Positions 1-11,483 of a stretch of 11,483 nucleotides of DNA are shown here, one piece after another; positions within the stretch are counted from its first letter, which is position 1, and every line of letters starts with the position of its first letter. The position numbers and the translations under genes were made by a program. The notes below the pieces were generated by a model, which searched no databases, had not been told where the DNA came from, and was given only the letters and a program-made list of their open reading frames with translations. The DNA is from a virus (lineage: Duplodnaviria > Heunggongvirae > Uroviricota > Caudoviricetes): positions 1-11,483 of IMG/VR virus record IMGVR_UViG_2778261300_000001, one strand, 5' to 3'.

Positions 1-143
1 TGTTTACGGGGTTTTTTACTGGTTGATACTGTTTTTGTCATGTGAGTCACCTCTGACTGAGAGTTTACTCACTTAGCTGCGTGTCCACTATTGCTGGGTA
101 AGATCAGATCCAGCCTTATCTGGAGGACGGCAAATGCTTTCGC

Positions 144-500
144 ATGGTGCTTAAACCGTGGCGCGAGAGACGCAGTCTTTCCCAGAATGCACTCAGCCAC
201 ATGTGGTACAGCGAAATCAGTGAATACCTCATCAGCAAGGGTAAAACGTTCGCTACTCCAGCTTGGGTAAAAGATGCTCTCAAACACACATATCTCGGTT
301 ATGAAACCAAAGACCTGGTTGATGTCGTAACCGGTGATATCACCACTATCCAGTCGTTACGCCATACCTCCGATCTTGATACCGGAGAGATGTATGTCTT
401 CCTGTGTAAGGTTGAAGCCTGGGCGATGAATATTGGTTGCCACCTGACTATTCCACAGAGCTGCGAGTTTCAGCTGCTGCGCGACAAGCAGGAGGCGTAA
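144..500 (+). CDS. ybcN: NinB/Orf-family protein (YbcN-like recombination / DNA base-flipping protein), 118 aa from ATG 144
   Basis: Translation contains RSLSQN..(L/M)W, which resembles the RSLDQNRKLW motif of lambda NinB. It sits immediately upstream of ninE and its stop (498-500) overlaps the ninE ATG as TAATG. The start is uncertain: the in-frame stop at 99-101 forbids any longer N-terminus, and the GGAGG at 123-127 is 16 nt from the ATG. Confidence 0.6.
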   Translation: MVLKPWRERRSLSQNALSHMWYSEISEYLISKGKTFATPAWVKDALKHTYLGYETKDLVDVVTGDITTIQSLRHTSDLDTGEMYVFLCKVEAWAMNIGCHLTIPQSCEFQLLRDKQEA

Positions 501-670
501 TGGCTACACCGCTTATTCGTGTCATGAACGGACACATCTACAGAGTACCAAATCGTCGTAAGCGTAAACCTGAGCTGAAGCCATCCGAAATACCAACACT
601 GCTCGGATATACCGCCAGCTTGGTTGATAAAAAATGGTTGCGACTGGCAGCAAGGAGGAGTCATGGCTGA
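500..670 (+). CDS. ninE: NinE-family protein, 56 aa
   Basis: [56 protein letters not shown] is basic and similar in length and C-terminal W-LRR-AR pattern to lambda NinE. GGAGG lies 4 nt upstream of the ATG at 500. The 77-aa ORF in the track (437..670) is an upstream extension of the same frame. Confidence 0.75.
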   Translation: MATPLIRVMNGHIYRVPNRRKRKPELKPSEIPTLLGYTASLVDKKWLRLAARRSHG

Positions 671-953
671 TTTGAGAAAAGCAGCGCGTGGTCGGGAATG
701 CCAGGTAAGAATCCCTGGCGTATGTAATGGCAACCCTGAAACGTCTGTACTGGCACATATCCGGCTGACTGGATTGTGCGGCACCGGTACGAAACCGCCA
801 GACCTGATTGCCACCATTGCATGTTCTGCCTGCCACGACGAAATCGACCGCCGCACGCATTTTGTTGACGCTGGATATGCAAAAGAATGCGCGCTGGAAG
901 GTATGGCGAGAACGCAGGTTATCTGGCTGAAAGAGGGGGTAATTAAGGCGTGA
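663..953 (+). CDS. ybcO: YbcO-like putative nuclease, 96 aa, Cys/His-rich
   Basis: [64 protein letters not shown]... matches the DLP12 YbcO protein as I remember it. AGGAGG precedes the ATG at 663, and the gene overlaps the ninE stop by 8 nt. Confidence 0.8.
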
Positions 954-1312
954 ATACTTACCACATCACACTACCCTGGCCGCCGAGCAATAACCGCTAC
1001 TACCGCCATAATCGAGGGCGCACGCACATCAGCGCAGAAGGGCAGGCATACCGCGATAACGTCGCCCGAATCATTAAAGGCTCAATGCTGGATATCGGTC
1101 TGGCTATGCCTGTGAAAATCCGCATTGAGTGCCACATGCCGGATCGCCGTCGCCGTGACCTGGATAATCTGCAAAAAGCCGCTTTTGACGCACTCACTAA
1201 AGCAGGTTTCTGGCTGGATGATGCTCAGGTCGTTGATTACCGTGTTGTGAAGATGCCTGTTACCAAAGGTGGGAGGCTGGAACTGACCATCACCGAAATG
1301 GGGAATGAATGA
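950..1312 (+). CDS. rusA: RusA Holliday-junction resolvase (crossover junction endodeoxyribonuclease), 120 aa, GTG start
   Basis: [26 protein letters not shown]...[55 protein letters not shown] is near-identical to E. coli RusA as I recall it. The start codon is GTG at 950, overlapping the ybcO stop as GTGA. Confidence 0.9.
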
Positions 1313-1449
1313 TGTTTGAGTTTTATATGGCAGAACTTCTTCGCCACCGCTGGGGGCATCTGCGCTTATATCGTTTCCCCGGTTCTGTTTTGACCGATTA
1401 CCGAATACTGAAGAATTACGCCAAAACCCTGACAGGAGCAGGAGTATGA
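1309..1449 (+). CDS. ylcG: Small protein YlcG-like, 46 aa (absent from the ORF track because it is short)
   Basis: The ATG at 1309 overlaps the rusA stop as ATGA. Translation is [46 protein letters not shown], with TGA at 1447-1449. Position between rusA and Q matches DLP12 ylcG. Confidence 0.6.
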
Positions 1450-1534
1450 AGTCAGAGATAACAATCAACTAATACTGTTTTGTTGATTTTTGCTTGTAAT
1501 TGGCGTTCTGGTCTGATTTTTGTGGAGTAAGTTG

Positions 1535-1918
1535 ATGCGTGATATTCAGATGGTTCTTGAGCGTTGGGGAGCGTGGGCGGCTAATAATCATGAAGATGTG
1601 ACCTGGTCGTCCATTGCCGCCGGTTTTAAGGGATTAATTACTTCAAAAGTAAAATCTCGCCCGCAATGTTGTGACGATGACGCGATGATCATTTGCGGGT
1701 GCATGGCCCGTCTGAAAAAGAACAACAGCGATTTGCACGATTTATTAGTAGATTATTATGTAGTCGGTATGACATTCATGTCACTGGCAGGTAAGCATGG
1801 CTGCTCTGATGGTTATATCGGGAAAAGGTTACAGAAGGCTGAGGGCATAATTGAAGGGATGTTAATGGCATTAGATATCCGGTTAGAGATGGATATCGTT
1901 GTTAATAACTCTAATTAA
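1535..1918 (+). CDS. quuD: Late-gene antitermination protein Q (QuuD-like), 127 aa
   Basis: [35 protein letters not shown]...[16 protein letters not shown] matches the DLP12 Q-like antiterminator. GGAG lies 7 nt upstream of the ATG at 1535. The track ORF from 1520 uses an upstream TTG. Confidence 0.85.
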
Positions 1919-1951
1919 TATGCCAATTGTTTACTAAAAATTATTAAAAAT

Positions 1952-1969
1952 GGGGCGTTGAGACGCCCC
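1952..1969 (-). terminator. Hairpin (7-bp GC-rich stem GGGGCGT/ACGCCCC, 4-nt loop) followed on the minus strand by a U-rich tract; likely distal terminator for nmpC
   Basis: Stem 1952-1958 pairs with 1963-1969. The plus strand has A-runs on both sides, so on the minus strand the hairpin is followed by AUUUUUAAUAAUUUUU. Confidence 0.5.
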
Positions 1970-2057
1970 CAAAAATAAAGGGTAATATATAACAGAAGGT
2001 TTATATAGTTAGAAGCAAGGTTGTGCTTCTAAAGGAAGTGGCTTGAGGGAGCCACTT

Positions 2058-2097
2058 ATATGTTGGGGAGGCAACGCCTCCCGCAACATATCTTTTT
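2058..2097. terminator. Strong intrinsic terminator hairpin (about 15 bp stem with a 1-nt bulge, loop AAC) plus CTTTTT on the plus strand; sits between the quuD 3' end and the nmpC 3' end and may act in both directions
   Basis: 2058-2072 (ATATGTTGGGGAGGC) pairs with 2076-2091 (GCCTCCCGCAACATAT), with T-run 2093-2097. A second 8-bp hairpin lies at 2036-2057 (AAGTGGCT/AGCCACTT). Confidence 0.65.
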
Positions 2098-2107
2098 CGT
2101 AATCAGA

Positions 2108-3205
2108 TTAGAACTGGTAAACCAGACCTACAGCAACGATGTCATCAGTGCTTACACTGAGTGCTTTAGTGAAGTCATTTTTGTCAAGCAGGTTGATTTT
2201 GTAATCAACGAAAGTAGACATATTTTTGTTGAAGTAATAGGTTGCACCTACATCAACATATTTGACTAAGTCCTGATCGCCCCATACTCCAAGATCCTTA
2301 CCTTTAGATTGCAGGTAAGCAACGGACGGACGCAGACCGAAATCGAACTGATATTGTGCAACAGCTTCGAAGTTTTGGGCTTTATTAGCAACGAAGTGAT
2401 CAGCAAATACAGTCATATTCTGGGTTTCAGAATAGGTAGTGGCCAGGTAAATGTTGTTAGCGTCATATTTCAGACCTGCGGCCCAAACTTCTGCATTTTT
2501 ACCGGAAGCAAATACTTCAGGAAGAACTTTCCCTGCATTAACTTGAGTGTCGGTACGATCAGATTTCGCATAAGTTGCACCGATACCGAATCCTTCGTAT
2601 TCATAGGTAGCAGAGAAACCGAAGCCATCACCGTTACCTTCAGTGTAGTTATCGAAATCGCTACGATCGTTTTTGCCTTGGTACTGAGCAGCAAAGTTCA
2701 GACCATCAACCAGACCAAAGAAGTCGTTGTTACGATAGGTTGCAACACCAGTTGCACGTTGAGTCATGAACACGTCGGTTTGAGTCCAAGTGTCACCACC
2801 GAATTCTGGCAGGACGTCAGTCCACGCACCGATGTCGTATGCTACACCGTAGTTACGGCCGTAATCGATGGAGCCGTAGTCACCGAATTTCAGGCCAGCG
2901 AAGGCAAGACGGGTTTTATCTTTGGAGGAACCTTGAGATTCAGCGCGGTTGCCTTTGAATTCATATTCCCACTGACCGAAACCAGTCAGTTGATCGTTGA
3001 TTTGGGTTTCACCTTTGAAGCCAAGACGGGCATAAGTAGTATCACCATCATCTGCATCATTGGAGGAGAAGTAGTGCTTAGCATTAACTTTCCCGTACAG
3101 ATCCAGCTTGTTACTGTCTTTATTATAAATTTCAGCTGCCTGAGCAGACATCGCCATCAGTACTGATGCAGCTACAGCAGAAATTGCCACTGTTAATTTT
3201 TTCAT
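2108..3205 (-). CDS. nmpC: General bacterial porin of the OmpC/OmpD/NmpC family, 365 aa including signal peptide; prophage moron
   Basis: Signal peptide [23 protein letters not shown], then [17 protein letters not shown]... and C-terminal ...VAVGLVYQF, the typical porin beta-barrel terminus ending in F. I take the ATG at 3203-3205 as the start rather than the upstream extension in the track. The reading frame is uninterrupted. Confidence 0.9.
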
Positions 3206-3632
3206 CGTGAGCCCTTTTTTTGAACTATTATTAAAAAATGATGTCACTGCGCGATAAATATTCATCTAATCAATGTGATTATTTCAAGATGTAAGTTTTG
3301 GTTTCTCGTTTGATTTGTGAAGTAGATCTCTATTTTTATCTGAACTTTTTTCTATCGAATCCTATTCATGGCTCTTGGCTGAATAAAAATAAATCTATTA
3401 GCCAATTTATATTAACGGCTGTTATTTATAAGCGCTCTATAATTTGAAGGTTCAATTTAAACCGGCTAAAAATAACACTGGAAATTATTTGTTGGTTATT
3501 TGTTGAGATTTGCTTATGTATTTGTAGTGGTGTTTTCAATACTCGGTAGCATTCTCGCAAATATCATTTAGTGGTTTACGTACGTAAAAAATTGGTTATG
3601 CTGTTAAGAGTGGTTACTTCGTCACACAGCTT
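3206..3632. promoter_or_regulatory. AT-rich intergenic region: nmpC promoter and 5' leader on the minus strand, probably also late-promoter / essD upstream signals on the plus strand
   Basis: About 570 bp without a credible ORF between the divergent nmpC start and essD. It is AT-rich and contains a tandem 11-bp repeat at 3485-3506. Confidence 0.5.
3485..3506. repeat. Tandem direct repeat, 2 x 11 bp (TTATTTGTTGG / TTATTTGTTGA)
   Basis: Read directly from the sequence at 3485-3495 and 3496-3506. Confidence 0.6.
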
Positions 3633-3665
3633 AAACCCGCCGTCGAGCGGGTTTTTCCATTTTTT
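3633..3665 (+). terminator. Intrinsic terminator (8-bp stem AAACCCGC/GCGGGTTT, 6-nt loop, T-runs); candidate tR'-like terminator upstream of the lysis cassette
   Basis: Stem 3633-3640 pairs with 3647-3654, followed by TTTTT CCA TTTTTT. It lies about 110 bp upstream of the essD start. Confidence 0.6.
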
Positions 3666-3777
3666 GAGTCTCGATATTAGCTGATAACCCAATACCTGAG
3701 TTATTCACTGACTCCGAGTCTGTTACGTTTCGTAGTATTCCCTCAATTTACACCCGCTTTGTCTGCGAGGTGGGGTT

Positions 3778-3993
3778 ATGAAATCCATGGATAAGTTAAC
3801 AACGGGTGTCGCCTATGGCACCTCAGCAGGTAGTGCCGGGTACTGGTTTTTACAGCTGCTAGATAAAGTCACGCCCTCACAGTGGGCGGCAATTGGAGTG
3901 CTGGGTAGCCTGGTATTTGGCCTGCTGACGTACCTGACAAACCTTTATTTCAAGATTAAAGAAGATAAGCGCAAGGCTGCGAGAGGTGGATAA
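3778..3993 (+). CDS. essD: Phage-21-type pinholin S (holin/antiholin with dual-start motif MKSM), 71 aa
   Basis: [71 protein letters not shown] matches the S21/EssD pinholin: two transmembrane helices, Met1 and Met4 dual starts, charged C-terminus. RBS is GAGGTGGGG. Confidence 0.9.
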
Positions 3994-4490
3994 TGCCTCC
4001 ATCATTACGAAAAGCTGTTGCTGCTGCTATTGGTGGCGGGGCTATTGCTATAGCATCTGTGTTAATCACTGGCCCAAGTGGTAACGATGGTCTGGAAGGT
4101 GTGAGACATAATCCTTACAAAGACATAGTTGGTGTATGGACTGTATGTTACGGGCATACAGGAAAAGACATCATGCTCGGTAAAACGTATACCAAAGCAG
4201 AATGCAAAGCACTCTTGAATAAAGACCTTGCCACTGTCGCCAGACAAATTAACCCGTACATCAAAGTCGATATACCGGAAACAACGCGCGGCGCTCTTTA
4301 CTCATTCGTTTACAACGTGGGTGCTGGCAATTTCAGAACATCGACGCTTCTTCGCAAAATAAACCAGGGCGATATCAAAGGCGCATGTGATCAGCTACGT
4401 CGCTGGACATATGCTGGCGGTAAGCAATGGAAAGGTCTCATGACTCGTCGTGAGATTGAGCGTGAAATTTGTTTGTGGGGTCAGCAATGA
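3993..4490 (+). CDS. rrrD: SAR endolysin (lysozyme with N-terminal signal-anchor-release domain), 165 aa
   Basis: N-terminal SAR-like hydrophobic, Gly/Ala-rich segment [18 protein letters not shown], followed by a lysozyme-like domain. The start overlaps the essD stop as TAATG. Matches R21/RrrD. Confidence 0.9.
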
Positions 4491-4951
4491 ACAGAGTAAC
4501 CGCGATTATCTCCGCTCTGGTTATCTGCATCATCGTCTGCCTGTCATGGGCTGTTAATCATTACCGTGATAACGCAATCGCCTACAAAGAGCAGCGCGAT
4601 AACAAGGCCAGTGAACTGGAGAAGGCGAACGCCACCATCGCTGACATGCGGAAGCGTCAACGTGATGTAGCAGAACTCGACGCCAGATACACAAAGGAGC
4701 TTGCTGATGCTAACGCGACTATCGAAAGTCTTCGTGCTGATGTTTCTGCTGGGCGTAAGTGGCTGCGCGTCAAAGCTGTCTGTCCAGACATGCATAAAAT
4801 CACCGCCGCCTCCGGCGTGGATGATGGCACCAGCCCCAGACTTACTGACACCGCTCAACGGGATTATTTCACCCTTAGAAAGCGGATTGAAACCAGTGAT
4901 AAAATGATCCGAGGCTTGCAGCAATACATTCGCACGCAGTGTGTAAGATGA
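4487..4951 (+). CDS. rzpD: Rz-type i-spanin (inner-membrane spanin subunit), 154 aa
   Basis: [26 protein letters not shown]... is an N-terminal transmembrane helix followed by a charged, coiled-coil-like periplasmic domain. The start overlaps the rrrD stop as ATGA. Confidence 0.85.
4707..4907 (+). CDS. rzoD: Rz1-type o-spanin lipoprotein, 66 aa, embedded in the +1 frame of rzpD
   Basis: [23 protein letters not shown]... has a lipobox (VSGC) and a proline-rich mature part ([26 protein letters not shown]) typical of Rz1. GGAG lies 8 nt upstream of the ATG at 4707. It is wholly nested within Rz. Confidence 0.75.
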
Positions 4952-5331
4952 GCAATCTTTGCTAATTAGCCATGAAATAGATAAATATCAGGCCAACGAT
5001 GATTAGTGCCAGGCATCCTAATTGGTCAGAATGGCTGGCATTTGATCGTCTTGCTCTTCTTGCAGTTGATTGGACAGCCCTCTGTCCTCGACTTCCTCTT
5101 GGCATTCCTCTCATTTATTCTCTCTCAACATTGATATTGAACTGACAGATGATAATTATTTCATGAAAGTGGTATCTCGTTGATTTGATTACGCTACATA
5201 GTCGCCGGATTTTCGCATTTATCGGCATCGGGCGGTGCAAAATTGGCATAATCGAAACGTAGAGTTTTTGGCTGACAACAGCATTAGCGGTCACCCGGAG
5301 AGTGTTGTGAACATGTTAATTACATGACGCT

Positions 5332-5652
5332 TTAGATGCATCGACATTTGATGATGCTTGTCAGACCTGTCATTTTCTTTGCTTCATTTTCAACATTGAG
5401 GAAGTTGGTTGAGCATATTTTTTGATAATCTCCAGTTGTGAATCCTGTTTTATCGATCTTGCGTTTCAAGGGATTAATCGTTTTGCAAGATGCTCTATGG
5501 ATTCTGGTAAAGCGTTCGTCAGATTTATTACCTTTACCTCTGGTTCGCTTCAATGCATTGACAACATATCCGTCTGGATTATCGCCAAGCCAATTACGAT
5601 AGTCTGATTCACTCTCAGTCTGAAGGTCACTTCTGAATACCTTTATGGACAT
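5332..5652 (-). CDS. Hypothetical protein, 106 aa, basic, 4 Cys (possible zinc ribbon); moron in the bor position between the spanins and cos
   Basis: Minus-strand ORF with GGAG 7 nt upstream of the ATG at 5652 (the track's 112-aa version starts at an upstream ATG at 5670). Translation: MSIKVFRSDLQTESESDYRNWLGDNPDGYVVNALKRTRGKGNKSDERFTRIHRASCKTINPLKRKIDKTGFTTGDYQKICSTNFLNVENEAKKMTGLTSIIKCRCI. It lies in an AT-rich island opposite to the flanking phage genes. I cannot place it in a family. Confidence 0.5.
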   Translation of the reverse strand: MSIKVFRSDLQTESESDYRNWLGDNPDGYVVNALKRTRGKGNKSDERFTRIHRASCKTINPLKRKIDKTGFTTGDYQKICSTNFLNVENEAKKMTGLTSIIKCRCI

Positions 5653-5796
5653 GAAGATACTCCTGTGCATTTATGGTACGAAGAAATAGCAAAAGTATTT
5701 TTACCGTAAATTGCGAATCTACAAAAGCAAAACAATGCGTAATATCAGAGTGAATATTCTGCCTTTAATGTGGGTCCTTCTGATGACCTGAGCTCT

Positions 5797-5817
5797 CACG
5801 GGGCGGGAGCGTCGCGG
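5797..5817. other. cos-like sequence (possible degenerate cosN) about 170 bp upstream of the Nu1-type start codon
   Basis: CACGGGGCGGGAGCGTCGCGG resembles the lambda cosN region ACGGGGCGGCGACCTCGCGGG: 17 of 21 positions match by eye, and 8 of 12 within the cohesive-end core. Its position relative to the Nu1-like start mirrors lambda (cosN about 190 bp upstream of Nu1). Confidence 0.35.
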
Positions 5818-5897
5818 AAAAAGGCTAGTTTTTGCATTTTTATCGGCCACCATCATCTTTGCATCTTATTGATTATTAATGGTTATTTGTTTTTTGT

Positions 5898-5927
5898 ATG
5901 TCGAATTGAGCGGTTTTTGTTCGACAT
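5898..5927. repeat. 8-bp inverted repeat ATGTCGAA ... TTCGACAT with 14-bp spacer, between the cos-like site and the Nu1-type start (candidate terminase-binding cosB-type element)
   Basis: Read from the sequence: 5898-5905 and 5920-5927 are exact reverse complements. A function as a protein-binding site is inference. Confidence 0.4.
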
Positions 5928-5986
5928 CGAACGCGTTTTCTTAAAGTTGTTCGCACGATGCATGTTTAAAGCTCTCCGGAGGAAAT

Positions 5987-7366
5987 ATGGATCATGAGTT
6001 GAAAAACTTGGTGCTGAATATTAATCAACTGGCGGCTTTATCTGGTCTGCACCGCCAGACTGTCGTGGCAAGACTGAAAAACATTCGTCCCGCTGGTGGA
6101 CATGACAAACTCAAGCTATATCGGTTGACCGATATTCTGACTGAATTTATGGGGTTACCACCGCCGGTTGCTGAGGGCGAAATGGATCCACATGAACGCA
6201 AAGCCTGGTATCAGTCTGAACGTGAGCGTCTTAAGTTCGAACAGGAAACGGCACAACTCATTCCGGCCAGTGATGTCAGACGGGAGTTTGCCATCTGGGC
6301 AAAAGCGGTCGTGCAGGTGCTGGAGACATTACCGGATATTCTGGAACGTGACTGCGGCCTGCAGCCTGCCGCTGTGAGCCGTGTTCAGTCCATTATTGAT
6401 GATCTGCGCGATCAGATAACCGAATCCCATCTCGGCAAGGAGCTGCTGGAAAAAGTCGAGCTAACGGAGGATAACGCCAGCAAACTGGAGGAGTTTTCGA
6501 AAGAGTGGCAGGACGCTAACGATAAGTGGAATGCTATGTGGGGCGTCAAAATTGAGCAGACCAAAGACGGCAAACATTATGTCGCGGGTATTGGCCTCAG
6601 CATGGAGGACACGGAAGGAGGCAAGCTGAGCCAGTTTCTGGTTGCCGCTAACCGTATCGCGTTTATTGACCCGGCAAACGGGAATGAAACGCCGATGTTT
6701 GTGGCGCAGGGCAATCAGATATTTATGAACGACGTGTTCCTGAAGCGCCTGGCGGCCCCGACCATTACCAGTGGTGGAAATCCACCGGCATTTTCCCTGA
6801 CATCAGACGGAAAGCTGACCGCTAAAAATGCGGATATCAGTGGCAGTGTGAATGCGAACGCCGGGACGCTCAACAATGTCACGGTAAATGAAAACTGTAC
6901 GATTAAGGGCATGCTGGAGGCGACCCAGGTCAGAGGGGATTTCGTTAAAGCTGTATCAAAAGCCTTCCCGAAAAAAGTCGGTACGTGGGGTAACACGGAA
7001 ACACCAAACGGTACGGTTACAGTCACCATCAGCGATGATCATAACTTTGACCGCCAGATTATTATTCCGCCCATTATTTTTAACGGTATAGCGTATGACG
7101 ATCCGGGGAGCGGAAATAACCCAGGAGGCACGCGATACACGGGTTATGGTTTTGAAGTTCGCAAAAACGGCGTATTAATCGCATCCAGAGAAACTAAAGG
7201 GGCCATTCCCGGTAGTTACAGTGCAGTTATTGATATGCCTAGTGGTGGTGGTAGCGTCACTCTGGAGTTTAAGATTTTCCAGAAAGGCAATCAGGGGGCA
7301 GGCAATATCACCGACTGTACGGTGATTGTGACCAAAAAAGCGGCTTCCGGCATCAGTATTCGTTGA
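5987..7366 (+). CDS. In-frame chimeric ORF (459 aa): small-terminase (Nu1-type, HTH) N-terminal region fused to the C-terminal receptor-binding region of tail tip / host-specificity protein J; deletion scar of the morphogenesis region
   Basis: N-terminus [32 protein letters not shown]... is HTH-like and sits where Nu1 would be, downstream of the cos-like site with GGAGG RBS. From about residue 185 onward ([86 protein letters not shown]...) it is near-identical to the lambda J C-terminal region as I remember it. It is followed by lom, as J is in lambda. Confidence 0.8.
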
Positions 7367-7388
7367 AATATTTATAACCCCAATAAAT

Positions 7389-7415
7389 GGCGTCAGGAAT
7401 GACGCCTTTTTTATT
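7389..7415 (+). terminator. Intrinsic terminator after the J-derived ORF (stem GGCGTCA/TGACGCC, loop GGAA, T6)
   Basis: 7389-7395 pairs with 7400-7406, followed by TTTTTTATT. Confidence 0.65.
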
Positions 7416-7436
7416 GCAGAAAAGCGAGAGGTAATT

Positions 7437-8036
7437 ATGCGTAAAGTTTGTGCAGCCATTTTGTCCGCAGCCATTTGTCTGGCCGTATCCGGTGCGCCTG
7501 CATGGGCGTCTGAACATCAGTCCACGCTGAGCGCGGGGTATCTTCATGCCCGGACCAACGTTCCCGGCAGTGATGATCTGAACGGGATTAACGTGAAATA
7601 CCGTTATGAGTTTACGGATACGCTGGGGCTGGTGACGTCATTCAGCTATGCAGGAGACAAGAATCGCCAGCTGACCCATTACAGCGATACCCGCTGGCAT
7701 GAAGATTCCGTGCGTAACCGCTGGTTCAGCGTAATGGCGGGGCCGTCTGTGCGCGTGAATGAATGGTTCAGCGCGTATGCGATGGCGGGTGTGGCTTACA
7801 GCCGTGTGTCGACTTTCTCCGGGGATTATCTCCGCGTAACTGACAACAAGGGGAAAACGCACGACGTGCTGACCGGAAGTGATGACGGTCGCCACAGCAA
7901 CACGTCTCTGGCGTGGGGGGCTGGCGTGCAGTTTAACCCGGCCGAATCCGTGGCCATTGATATTGCTTATGAAGGCTCCGGCAGTGGCGACTGGCGCACT
8001 GACGGTTTCATCGTGGGTGTCGGTTATAAGTTCTGA
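7437..8036 (+). CDS. lom: Lom outer-membrane protein (Ail/Lom/OmpX family beta-barrel), 199 aa with signal peptide
   Basis: Signal peptide MRKVCAAILSAAICLAVSGAPAWA, and a C-terminal ...GFIVGVGYKF beta-barrel terminus. It sits between J and stf as in lambda. RBS is AGAGG. Confidence 0.9.
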   Translation: MRKVCAAILSAAICLAVSGAPAWASEHQSTLSAGYLHARTNVPGSDDLNGINVKYRYEFTDTLGLVTSFSYAGDKNRQLTHYSDTRWHEDSVRNRWFSVMAGPSVRVNEWFSAYAMAGVAYSRVSTFSGDYLRVTDNKGKTHDVLTGSDDGRHSNTSLAWGAGVQFNPAESVAIDIAYEGSGSGDWRTDGFIVGVGYKF

Positions 8037-8062
8037 TTAGCCAGGTAACACAGTGTTATGAC

Positions 8063-8090
8063 AGCCCGCCGGTTCAGGCGGGCTTTTTTG
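8063..8090 (+). terminator. Intrinsic terminator after lom (8-bp stem AGCCCGCC/GGCGGGCT, 6-nt loop, T6)
   Basis: 8063-8070 pairs with 8077-8084, followed by TTTTTT. Confidence 0.65.
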
Positions 8091-8100
8091 TGGGGTGAAT

Positions 8101-11100
8101 ATGGCAGTAAAGATTTCAGGTGTACTGAAAGATGGCACAGGAAAACCGGTACAGAACTGCACAATCCAGCTGAAAGCAAAACGTAACAGCACCACGGTGG
8201 TGGTGAACACGCTGGCCTCAGAAAATCCGGATGAAGCCGGGCGTTACAGTATGGACGTTGAGTACGGTCAGTACAGCGTTATTCTGTTGGTGGAAGGATT
8301 CCCGCCGTCACATGCCGGGACCATCACCGTGTATGAAGATTCCCGACCCGGTACGCTGAATGATTTTCTCGGTGCCATGACGGAGGATGATGCCCGTCCG
8401 GAGGCACTGCGCCGCTTTGAACTGATGGTGGAAGAGGTGGCGCGTAACGCGTCCGTGGTGGCGCAGAACACAGCAGCCGCGAAGAAGTCAGCCAGCGATG
8501 CCAGCACATCAGCCCGTGAGGCGGCAACCCGTGCGACTGATGCTGCAGGCTCAGCACGCGCAGCCAGTACGTCAGCCGGACAGGCCGCGTCGTCGGCTCA
8601 GTCAGCGACTTCCAGCGCAGGAACGGCATCAACAAAGGCCACTGAAGCATCAAAAAGTGCTGCCGCTGCAGAGTCCTCAAAAAGCGCGGCAGCTACCAGT
8701 GCCAGTGCCGCGAAAACGTCAGAAACGAATGCGGCAGCGTCACAAAAATCTGCAGCCACTTCTGCATCCGCCGCGACCACAAAGGCGTCAGAAGCTGCCA
8801 CCTCAGCCCGGGATGCGGCGGCCTCAAAAGAGGCAGCGAAATCATCAGAAACGAACGCATCATCAAGCGCCAGTAGTGCCGCTTCCTCGGCAACGGCGGC
8901 AGGAAATTCCGCGAAGGCGGCAAAGACGTCCGAGACGAACGCCAGGTCTTCTGAAACGGCAGCGGGACAGAGTGCCTCAGCTGCGGCAGGCTCAAAAACA
9001 GCGGCTGCGTCGTCTGCCAGTGCAGCGTCAACAAGTGCCGGGCAGGCCTCAGCCAGTGCTAGCGCCGCCGGAAAATCGGCAGAAAGCGCCGCATCGTCCG
9101 CTTCAACAGCCACAACGAAGGCTGGCGAAGCCACTGAACAGGCCAGTGCAGCAGCGAGGGCTGCTTCCGCAGCGAAGACATCCGAAACGAACGCGAAAGC
9201 GTCGGAAACCAGCGCAGAATCCTCAAAAACGGCTGCCGCATCGTCCGCCAGTTCGGCGGCGTCATCGGCATCATCTGCGTCTGCTTCAAAAGATGAGGCG
9301 ACCAGACAGGCGTCAGCAGCAAAGGGCAGCGCCACGACGGCATCCACGAAGGCGACAGAGGCTGCTGGCAGTGCGACGGCGGCAGCACAGAGCAAAAGTA
9401 CGGCAGAATCCGCAGCAACGCGCGCTGAGACAGCGGCAAAACGTGCAGAGGATATTGCATCCGCCGTGGCGCTTGAGGATGCGAGCACGACGAAAAAGGG
9501 GGTAGTACAGCTCAGCAGTGCGACCAACAGCACGTCTGAAACGCTGGCGGCAACGCCAAAGGCAGTAAAAGCAGCCTATGACAATGCAGAGAAACGTCTG
9601 CAGAAAGACCAGAACGGTGCTGATATTCCCGACAAGGACCGCTTCCTGAGTAACATTAATGTTTACAGCAAAGGTGAAGTGGATCAGAAAAAGGGGATGC
9701 GATACGTTGTGGTAAATGCCCCGGCGGGTGTCCAGGAAGGTAAATATTATCCGTTAGTGATAAAAAGGAATGACAGCCATCGGGCATCCCGCGTTGTCAT
9801 TTCAACGCCAAGTCGCTCAGCTAATCACAGAATGAATAATTGTGAGTTTAATGGTTTTGTTTGCGCAGGCGGCTGGACGGACCGGGGTAGCTATGCCTGT
9901 GGTATGTTCTGGGCTTATTCATCATCGGAACGCGCTATTCATTCCATTCTGATGAGTAATAAAGGCGATACCGTAGACAGCGTATTCTATATAGAAGGTG
10001 GGGCATTTCCCGTAGAGGTCTTTTTAGAAGAAGGTCTCTCCGTTACTGCACCTGCTTCTGATTATATTGTTGCTGAAACGACTTATAAATTTGGCGCAAC
10101 TGATCCTTATTCTGAATCAGTTGCGGTAAATTTAATTTTAGATTTTAAACAAGGTAATGGATTTTATAGTTCGTATCCTGTTTTGAGTAAGTCAGACATT
10201 AGCGGGAATAAGATTTACGCTAATGATGAAGTTATTGTCCGTAGTCAGAACGCGTTAAGGATGATTGCAGGTGATTACGGTGTCATATGGCGAAATGATG
10301 GAGCAAATACTTACTTGCTCATGACTGATAAAGGCGACCAGTACGGTGGCTGGAACGGTCTTCGACCATTTGCAGTAAATAACGCAACAGGTGAAGTGAC
10401 GATCAATACACCACTTAATTCTCCTAAGGGGATTAAGGGAAATTCTGATACAGCTACGAAACTTCAGACAGCAATAAAAATATCTGGTGTTTCGTTTGAT
10501 GGTTCTACTGATATCACTTTAACCGCTGCGCATGTTGCTGCTTTTGCCAGAAGAGCAACGGATACGTATGCCGATGCGGATGGGGGCGTTCCCTGGAATG
10601 CCGAATCAGGCGCTTACAATGTCACCCGCTCTGGCAACAGCTATATTCTGGTTAACTTCTATACCGGAGTCGGAAGTTGCCGGACCTTGCAGATGAAGGC
10701 GCATTACAGAAATGGTGGTCTGTTCTACCGTTCTTCAAGAGACGGTTATGGTTTTGAGGAAGACTGGGCAGAAGTTTATACCTCGAAAAATCTTCCACCA
10801 GAAAGCTACCCAGTCGGCGCACCAATCCCGTGGCCATCAGATACCGTTCCGTCTGGTTATGCCCTGATGCAGGGGCAGACTTTTGACAAATCTGCTTACC
10901 CGAAACTTGCAGCCGCTTATCCGTCAGGCGTGATCCCTGATATGCGTGGCTGGACGATTAAGGGCAAGCCCGCCAGTGGTCGTGCCGTATTGTCTCAGGA
11001 ACAGGACGGCATTAAATCGCACACCCACAGCGCCAGCGCATCCAGTACGGATTTGGGTACGAAAACCACATCGTCGTTTGATTACGGCACTAAATCCACG

Positions 11101-11483
11101 AATAACACCGGGGCGCATACCCATAGTATTAGCGGGACAGCAAATAGTGCCGGTGCGCACCAACACAAGAGTTCCGGTGCATTTGGTGGCACGAACACGA
11201 GCATTTTTCCTAATGGTTATACTGCGATTTCAAATCTAAGCGCGGGGATTATGAGCACAACAAGCGGTACTGGCCAGACTCGTAATGCAGGGAAGACATC
11301 ATCAGATGGTGCTCATACCCACTCACTGTCCGGCACTGCTGCAAGCGCAGGTGCACACGCACATACTGTCGGTATTGGTGCTCATACGCACTCCGTTGCG
11401 ATTGGTTCACATGGACACACCATCACCGTTAACGCTGCTGGTAACGCGGAAAACACCGTCAAAAACATCGCATTTAACTATAT
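8101..11483 (+). CDS. stf: Side tail fiber protein Stf, 3'-partial (at least 1127 codons; continues past the window end)
   Basis: N-terminus [80 protein letters not shown] is the conserved lambda Stf / StfR N-terminus. I translated the frame by hand from 8101 to 11483 and met no stop. It contains a long Ala/Ser/Thr-rich repeat region and C-terminal GAHTHS-type His repeats. It is missing from the ORF track, which appears to list only complete ORFs ending in a stop. Confidence 0.9.
8460..9480 (+). repeat. Low-complexity Ala/Ser/Thr-rich coding repeat region inside stf, with a recurring 23-nt unit encoding AK(T/S)SETNA
   Basis: Units GCGAAAACGTCAGAAACGAATGC (8709), GCGAAATCATCAGAAACGAACGC (8836), GCAAAGACGTCCGAGACGAACGC (8920) and GCGAAGACATCCGAAACGAACGC (9182). 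GCN-rich codon composition generates long shadow ORFs in other frames. Confidence 0.7.

Follow-up and report, generated by a model that had tools for sequence, protein, structure and literature searches.

What is encoded by the long Ala/Ser/Thr-rich tract of a phage tail fiber gene, in which a short DNA unit recurs and beneath which two long open reading frames (ORFs) run in other frames? The question is raised by the window analyzed here, i.e., a stretch of 11,483 nucleotides corresponding to positions 1 to 11,483 of the IMG/VR virus record IMGVR_UViG_2778261300_000001 (Duplodnaviria; Heunggongvirae; Uroviricota; Caudoviricetes), which ends in stf, the gene for the side tail fiber (Stf). The answer favored here, with a probability of about 0.8, is that the tract is the proximal heptad coiled-coil shaft of a lambda-type Stf, that its conserved heptads offer sites for in-register recombination, and that the alternative ORFs arise automatically. 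The coiled-coil shaft and the mosaicism of tail fiber genes are already established, and the window carries a longer allele of a known domain.

The stf coding sequence (8101–11481, plus strand) lies in a frame-1 ORF open from 8062 to the window end. Met 8101 starts a lambda Stf-type N-terminus and is followed by 1127 codons open to the window end, with matches to PF08400, PF21446, and PF07484. As full-length homologs have 1132–1133 amino acids (aa), about five codons are cut off at the window end; tfa, the gene for the tail fiber assembly chaperone expected 3′ of a lambda-type stf, would lie beyond this end. The Pfam search placed phage_tail_N (PF08400) at Stf residues 1–134 (E = 1.6e-71), a Gp34_trimer-like domain at residues 655–758, and a Collar domain at residues 906–953. 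The N-terminal collar domain (aa 1–91; 8101–8373, plus strand), the limits of which were taken from Ur-lambda Stf (PMC12617516), also matched the chains of the PDB entries 9e7m and 9mgh over residues 1–94 (E = 4e-52). The gene order J–lom–stf was found, with a truncated J in an ORF at 5987–7366, Ail/Lom at 7437–8036, and stf from 8101. The PF08400 N-domain and the position 3′ of lom identify the gene, on sequence grounds, as a lambda-type stf.

The Ala/Ser/Thr-rich tract spans aa 121–465 (nt 8461–9495) and comprises 345 residues, with 38% Ala, 24% Ser, and 12% Thr, i.e., 74% together. A preliminary description, made from the letters of the window alone, had reported about 330 residues of low complexity. 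The composition and approximate extent stood, while the period of seven residues, and with it a structured heptad coiled coil, had been missed. In the tract, about 49–52 heptads with the consensus S-A-(S/T)-x-A-x-(T/S) follow one another without a break; in the heptad columns (n = 49), Ala occupied position 5 in 47 and position 2 in 34, and Ser occupied position 1 in 36. Residue identity was raised at all lags of 7n (z = 7.4–9.8 against shuffles) and at no other lag, every spacing within the repeat families of the tract was a multiple of 21 nt, and a register scan gave a single phase from aa 112 to aa 459. Modeling of aa 95–520 as a monomer with AlphaFold2 (AF2) predicted a helix over aa 101–473, with one fold-back and a predicted local distance difference test (pLDDT) score mostly of 80–91. 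The fold-back is probably an artifact of modeling a monomer, as reported for AlphaFold3 on full-length Stf (PMC12617516). The heptad table, autocorrelation, register scan, AF2 model, and lambda domain map together delimit a proximal coiled-coil shaft of 52 heptads in one register (aa 102–465; 8404–9495, plus strand).

The uninterrupted seven-residue periodicity expected of a canonical coiled coil is thus present in the tract. Leu, Ile, or Val at the a and d positions, also characteristic of the canonical coiled coil, was not found in it, the fixed positions being Ala, Ala, and Ser; the coiled coil of the tract is a small-residue core variant. Small-residue-core stalks, such as those with alacoil-type packing and those of trimeric autotransporter adhesins, likewise consist of heptads with Ala at core-like positions three and four apart, and their length is set by the number of repeats; they show no sequence homology to the tract.

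The domain map of Ur-lambda Stf from cryo-electron microscopy and AlphaFold3 comprises StfN (residues 1–91), a linker (92–101), and a proximal coiled coil (102–393) (PMC12617516), and the window Stf similarly has an α-helical heptad shaft after a short linker. In Ur-lambda, Stf is a homotrimer, 12 N-domains form a collar on the tail, this collar domain fixes the fiber to the junction of tail tube and tip, and the trimeric bundle was resolved joined to three collar domains (PMC12617516). Judged by sequence, the tract is homologous to this proximal trimeric coiled coil, and the window allele would by the same homology be trimeric. A literature search for earlier descriptions of heptads in Stf gave only the Ur-lambda structure paper (PMC12617516). 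The window Stf also shares with that of Ur-lambda and lambda the N-terminal collar domain (93% identity to the lambda copies), the position after lom, the hinge motif, and an Ala/Ser/Thr heptad shaft of ∼84–86% DNA identity. Unlike that of lambda, it has 15 heptads (105 aa) more in the shaft, a total length of ∼1132 aa versus 774, and a distal part with Gp34_trimer-like and Collar domains, and its gene lies in a defective prophage without tail genes.

The shaft is followed by a hinge motif (9496–9582, plus strand) that is common to P2 H-type and Mu S fibers, and the Mu S structures 5yvq and 8ju3 match Stf aa 440–519. The fibers P2 gpH, Mu gpS, and P1 S-type have this motif in common with the window just after the tract. 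The long Ala/Ser/Thr shaft is not shared by P2-like phage records, the DNA similarity of which to the window is confined to nt 9489–9600.

The four copies of AK(T/S)SETNA reported in the preliminary description were borne out. The degenerate pattern GCRAARWCRTCMGARACGAAYGC matched exactly four times on the plus strand, at 8710–8732 (unit 1, AKTSETNA), 8836–8858 (unit 2, AKSSETNA), 8920–8942 (unit 3, AKTSETNA), and 9172–9194 (unit 4, AKTSETNA), with none expected from 200 shuffles; as the pattern was built from the four copies, this test says that the set is not a chance feature of base composition, and no more. Units 2 and 3 had been placed correctly, and the starts given for units 1 and 4 (8709 and 9182) were off by 1 and 10 nt, respectively. 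Degenerate extra copies follow unit 3 (RSSETAA) and unit 4 (KASETSA). A second repeat family, D1 (SKxAAAx-SASAA), has its first copy at 8676–8712 (plus strand) and others at 8739, 8991, and 9222.

To call the units near-identical was an overstatement. Pairs of units agreed at 17–20 of 24 nt, and their longest exact match extended over 5–11 nt. At codon positions 1 and 2, 15–16 of 16 sites were identical, compared with two to five matches at the eight wobble positions. Since the wobble positions have diverged and the first two positions are nearly identical, the likeness of the units points to conservation at the protein level only, and they are old repeats held alike by selection on the protein rather than recent duplications. 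Heptads aligned in register had a mean DNA identity of 44%, and the best blocks of several heptads reached 60–68%.

Joints between alleles were nevertheless found at these units, which lent support to the earlier proposal that the repeats are substrates for recombination and a source of mosaicism. In the Stf proteins P0139 and P0172, window heptad 21 is joined to heptad 38. The DNA encoding P0139 (locus L122) is window-like as far as GCAGCGAA, with which unit 2 opens, and resumes at the identical 8 nt that open unit 4; the crossover between the two units amounts to a 336-nt in-frame deletion, with its left end at unit 2 and its right end at unit 4. Unit 3 is a mosaic joint with the shaft type of mEp460 and L100. 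Over the 120 nt that precede this unit, the stf of mEp460 showed 97% identity to the window, compared with 36% directly after nt 8942, where the homology stops. To the right, it follows the prophage loci L100 and L103 (E. ruysiae/Escherichia sp.), with 66% ungapped identity over 279 nt and near-identity in the first ∼100 nt (alignment by eye). The parental units, at aa 275 and aa 142, are 19 heptads apart; hence, the exchange was non-allelic but in phase. The Stf proteins of mEp460, L100, and L103 resemble that of the window in the N-domain, heptad register, and AAKTSETNA heptad. Their shafts differ in being much richer in K(T/S/N)SETNA and SETAA heptads, and their distal domains are others; in mEp460, recombination has linked such a shaft to the window type at unit 3. 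The fiber of phage Cyrano (108 kb) starts with a P1 S-like N-terminus and has acquired its shaft from unit 1 on, where the identity of the Cyrano gene to the window rises from ∼70 to ∼98%. In P0133 and P0152, a 315-nt segment between the D1 copies at 8676 and 8991 is absent.

Shaft length was compared among alleles retrieved with the N-domain alone as query, which gave 117 loci and 150 cluster representatives; the sampling is therefore not biased by tract length. Length classes were taken as the distance between two unique anchors, the N-domain and the hinge. The loci yielded 110 Stf proteins, that of the window among them; 76 had the tract length of the window and 10 that of lambda (−105 aa), and single alleles deviated by −3, +4, or +9 aa. 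The register relative to the N-domain was unchanged in 259 of 265 proteins with a detectable tract. Relative to the window, the length classes of −105, −112, −203, −217, −224, −315, and −322 aa are multiples of seven, and those of −208, −253, −254, −267, −3, +3, +4, and +9 aa are not, i.e., seven of 15 non-zero classes keep the heptad phase, where about two are expected by chance. Most changes of shaft length in the relatives are by whole heptads. Fiber length variation had been proposed earlier, with a comparison of repeat copy number among stf alleles as a check; copy number does vary, the SETNA count ranging from 0 to 7 among relatives, with three in lambda and four in the window allele.

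The window shaft exceeds that of lambda by exactly 315 nt, which equals 15 heptads or 105 aa; in pairwise DNA alignment, the segment absent from lambda stf lies at 9009–9323 (plus strand). At 0.148 nm per residue, the 15 extra heptads would make the shaft ∼15.5 nm longer. Within the class of 36–37 heptads, heptad-unit alignment resolved different deletions, namely, of heptads 30–44 (lambda), 31–45, 15–29, 17–31, 5–19, 22–37, and 31–46. Compared with the window allele, exactly 15 heptads are lost in at least four different deletions and 16 in two (heptads 5–46, nt ∼8488–9369). No significant lag was found when a higher-order period was sought in the tract at lags of 1–35 heptads, and this ruled out a 15-heptad super-repeat as the cause of the recurrent 105-aa differences. 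The recurrent losses of 15 heptads may reflect selection for discrete shaft lengths.

A mechanism can be proposed on this basis. By homology to Ur-lambda, three chains would wind into a thin coiled-coil trimer that keeps the distal, receptor-binding part at a distance from the tail, and shaft length may have a functional effect. The 23-nt units would be its best-conserved heptads, kept alike by selection on the protein as their wobble positions drift. Short motifs that recur in phase across the tract and in other shaft families would thereby supply short homology for unequal, in-register recombination between the fiber genes of phages and prophages, probably by phage Rad52-type recombinases, which tolerate short diverged homology. 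Whole heptads could thus be deleted, added, or swapped, with the coil unbroken. De Paepe et al. (2014; PMC3945230) found that homologous recombination with defective prophages brings DNA of their stf genes into lambda, and Red-β dominates lambda–prophage recombination on short, ∼12% diverged homology (PMC3945230). A defective-prophage stf like that of the window, 84–96% identical to phage alleles over ∼1 kb, is a plausible donor, and the joints at the units may have formed via a Red-β-type pathway.

Several observations weigh against this account and bear on its rivals. The allele samples are best hits or representatives of 50%-identity clusters and no census. Heptad phase is lost in the length classes of −208, −253, −254, and −267 aa and in the small indels. 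Chance re-alignment in a periodic sequence favors in-phase offsets, and the weaker re-anchors (22/28) are biased in this way; re-anchoring with 28-aa windows, biased to in-phase offsets, was replaced by two-anchor distances and heptad-unit alignment. The PDB chains of Stf (9e7m) end at residue 94, and the shaft is without an atomic structure in any allele. With at most 11 exact nucleotides shared by the units and heptads of 44% mean DNA identity, the repeats are poor substrates for classical homologous recombination. The indel joints of lambda, P0137, P0161, and phage 500465-3 are not at recognizable repeats; at the lambda-versus-window deletion junction, 27 of 60 bases match and no clear direct repeat was found. 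Moreover, the majority of mosaic joints are located beyond the tract, in the hinge, and co-linear similarity to the window allele stops at aa 496–519 in 31 of 67 distinct complete Stf proteins. The hinge is for this reason regarded as the main swap point for receptor-binding modules, with the shaft repeats secondary. A literature search for the peptide motifs SASAAA, ADAKKS, MDETNR, and GAGENS, junction sites of Stf chimeras, gave nothing relevant.

These points lend some weight to the view that the repeats reflect structural selection for the heptad pattern alone, with the joints at the units being coincidental and random illegitimate deletions being retained where they keep phase. The divergence of the units at wobble positions, their short exact runs, the lack of higher-order periodicity, and the joints away from repeats all fit such a view, and the at least four different deletions that each take 15 heptads look more like selection on length than like a mechanism. 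It is judged improbable, though worth serious attention, as the units together account for ∼9% of the tract yet contain three independent joints, a fourth deletion runs between two D1 copies, and lambda–prophage stf recombination was shown to be homology-dependent (PMC3945230). A slippage-prone tandem array, i.e., a contingency locus with high-frequency change of fiber length, is very improbable. Rare in-frame indels do occur at local micro-repeats: a 9-nt tandem repeat (CGGCATCAT × 2.1, encoding SSA-SSA; 9257–9275, plus strand) is the site of a 3-aa deletion in three database alleles (P0054, P0096, and L051), and a 3-aa insertion (P0062), a 4-aa insertion (L022), and a 9-aa duplication (L078) were also found. 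All these slippage-type changes are rare, off the heptad phase, and at micro-repeats other than the units, which are not tandem and are too diverged, so that the slippage suggested in the preliminary description did not hold for the units. Apart from this 9-nt repeat, Tandem Repeats Finder detected nothing in the tract, and the head-to-tail copies of high DNA identity expected of a contingency locus were absent from it, the heptads being too dissimilar in DNA; of the 110 Stf proteins, the 76 noted above are identical in tract length and only three have a small indel.

The two long alternative-frame ORFs were judged to be compositional shadows and not genes, in agreement with what had been proposed earlier. 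The ORF in the +2 frame (8498–9505, plus strand) has 335 aa with 27% Arg, 17% Gln, and 16% Pro, and the antisense ORF (8598–9533, minus strand) has 311 aa, is Ala/Val/Asp-rich with 36% Ala, and corresponds to lambda orf206b (J02459 20147–20767). Both are long because runs of GCN, TCN, ACN, and AGY codons leave both frames open. When synonymous codons were reshuffled with the protein and codon usage held, both ORFs were reproduced: the +2 frame was stop-free in 2000 of 2000 shuffles, and the longest open run in the antisense frame averaged 293 codons compared with 298 observed. Hence, the antisense ORF is no longer than the sense protein forces it to be. In our estimate, there is almost no probability that either ORF is a genuine gene overlapping stf, the antisense ORF (orf206b/phrog_560) being the better candidate. 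The antisense ORF does match phrog_560 (E = 7.6e-120; annotated "unknown function") as well as phrog_24241, it is annotated in lambda, and 70% of allele differences are synonymous in its frame, compared with 74% for stf itself and 10% for the +2 ORF. The value of 70%, however, is automatic and uninformative on selection, because codons in the antisense frame and in stf have their wobble positions at the same nucleotides. In 43 of 73 alleles, the antisense ORF is cut short by a stop at 9389. Knock-down of lambda orf206b by CRISPR interference gave no plaque defect, nor did that of stf or tfa; the laboratory strain used carries a frameshifted stf (PMC10695390). A literature search for expression of orf206b gave no evidence of it, and the +2 ORF had no PHROG match. 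The database family (phrog_560/orf206b) appears to be built from a compositional artifact.

Several phage records annotate two or three "hypothetical proteins" beneath the tract. The database Stf proteins P0130, P0149, P0175, and P0200 turn Arg/Pro/Gln-rich in mid-tract; there, a frameshift (an assembly error or the mark of a pseudogene) has led into the open +2 frame.

The preliminary interpretation was thus largely right on recombination, length variation, mosaicism, and the shadow ORFs. Its low-complexity stretch becomes a structural module with a countable unit, in which 21 nt equal one heptad and ∼1 nm of shaft. The in-phase sites at which natural fibers are cut and rejoined would be useful for engineering chimeric Stf of new host range or length, and two annotation artifacts are flagged, namely, the antisense family (orf206b, phrog_560) and the +2-frame Arg/Pro/Gln-rich "proteins" of frameshifted assemblies. 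A more speculative extension, toward which we lean less than away from it, is that different shaft families share the conserved heptad motifs AAKTSETNA and SKxAAAx-SASAA as boxes for recombination in register and that length is selected for a few discrete classes of ∼52, 36–37, and 20–23 heptads. If true, shaft length would be a tuned, evolvable parameter of host adsorption and not a neutral spacer.

Pfam matches along the window identified it as part of a defective lambdoid prophage, with NinB-like, YbcO, RusA, antiterminator Q, a minus-strand porin, lysozyme, and Rz in series. In the plus-strand ORF at 5987–7366 (459 aa), a DUF1441 (Nu1/NohD-like) N-terminus is fused to the C-terminal domains of J (tip and receptor binding). 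As this fusion is followed by Ail/Lom, all the head genes and most tail genes are gone; a deletion evidently removed them and left lom and an intact stf in the defective prophage. The porin gene (2108–3265, minus strand; 385 aa; Porin_1, E = 2e-156) lies between antiterminator Q and the lysis genes on the opposite strand, and its equivalent is labeled ompC or porin in E. coli genome records.

In the distal part of stf, aa 974–1127 (∼11050–11481, plus strand) contain the repeated His-x-His motifs GAHTHS, GAHAHT, and GSHGHT, which we take to resemble the metal-binding needle repeats of T4 gp37 and of the lambda Stf distal tip. An inverted repeat at 10086–10134 has 19-nt arms (89% complementary) and an 11-nt loop.

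Among the database entries retrieved, a frameshifted stf of 401 aa, of the lambda PaPa type and 93% identical to the query, was found at L083–L098, L102, L105, L108, and similar loci, in assemblies labeled Leeuwenhoekiella, Pseudomonas, Shewanella, Desulfosporosinus, Oceanobacillus, Kitasatospora, and others. The contigs concerned are ∼48.5 kb or very small, at ∼1× coverage, and look like contamination with lambda control DNA. Many database Stf entries are marked "partial," which suggests that assemblies often break in stf. A few are named "short-chain fatty acid transporter," a label that looks like a mis-annotation.

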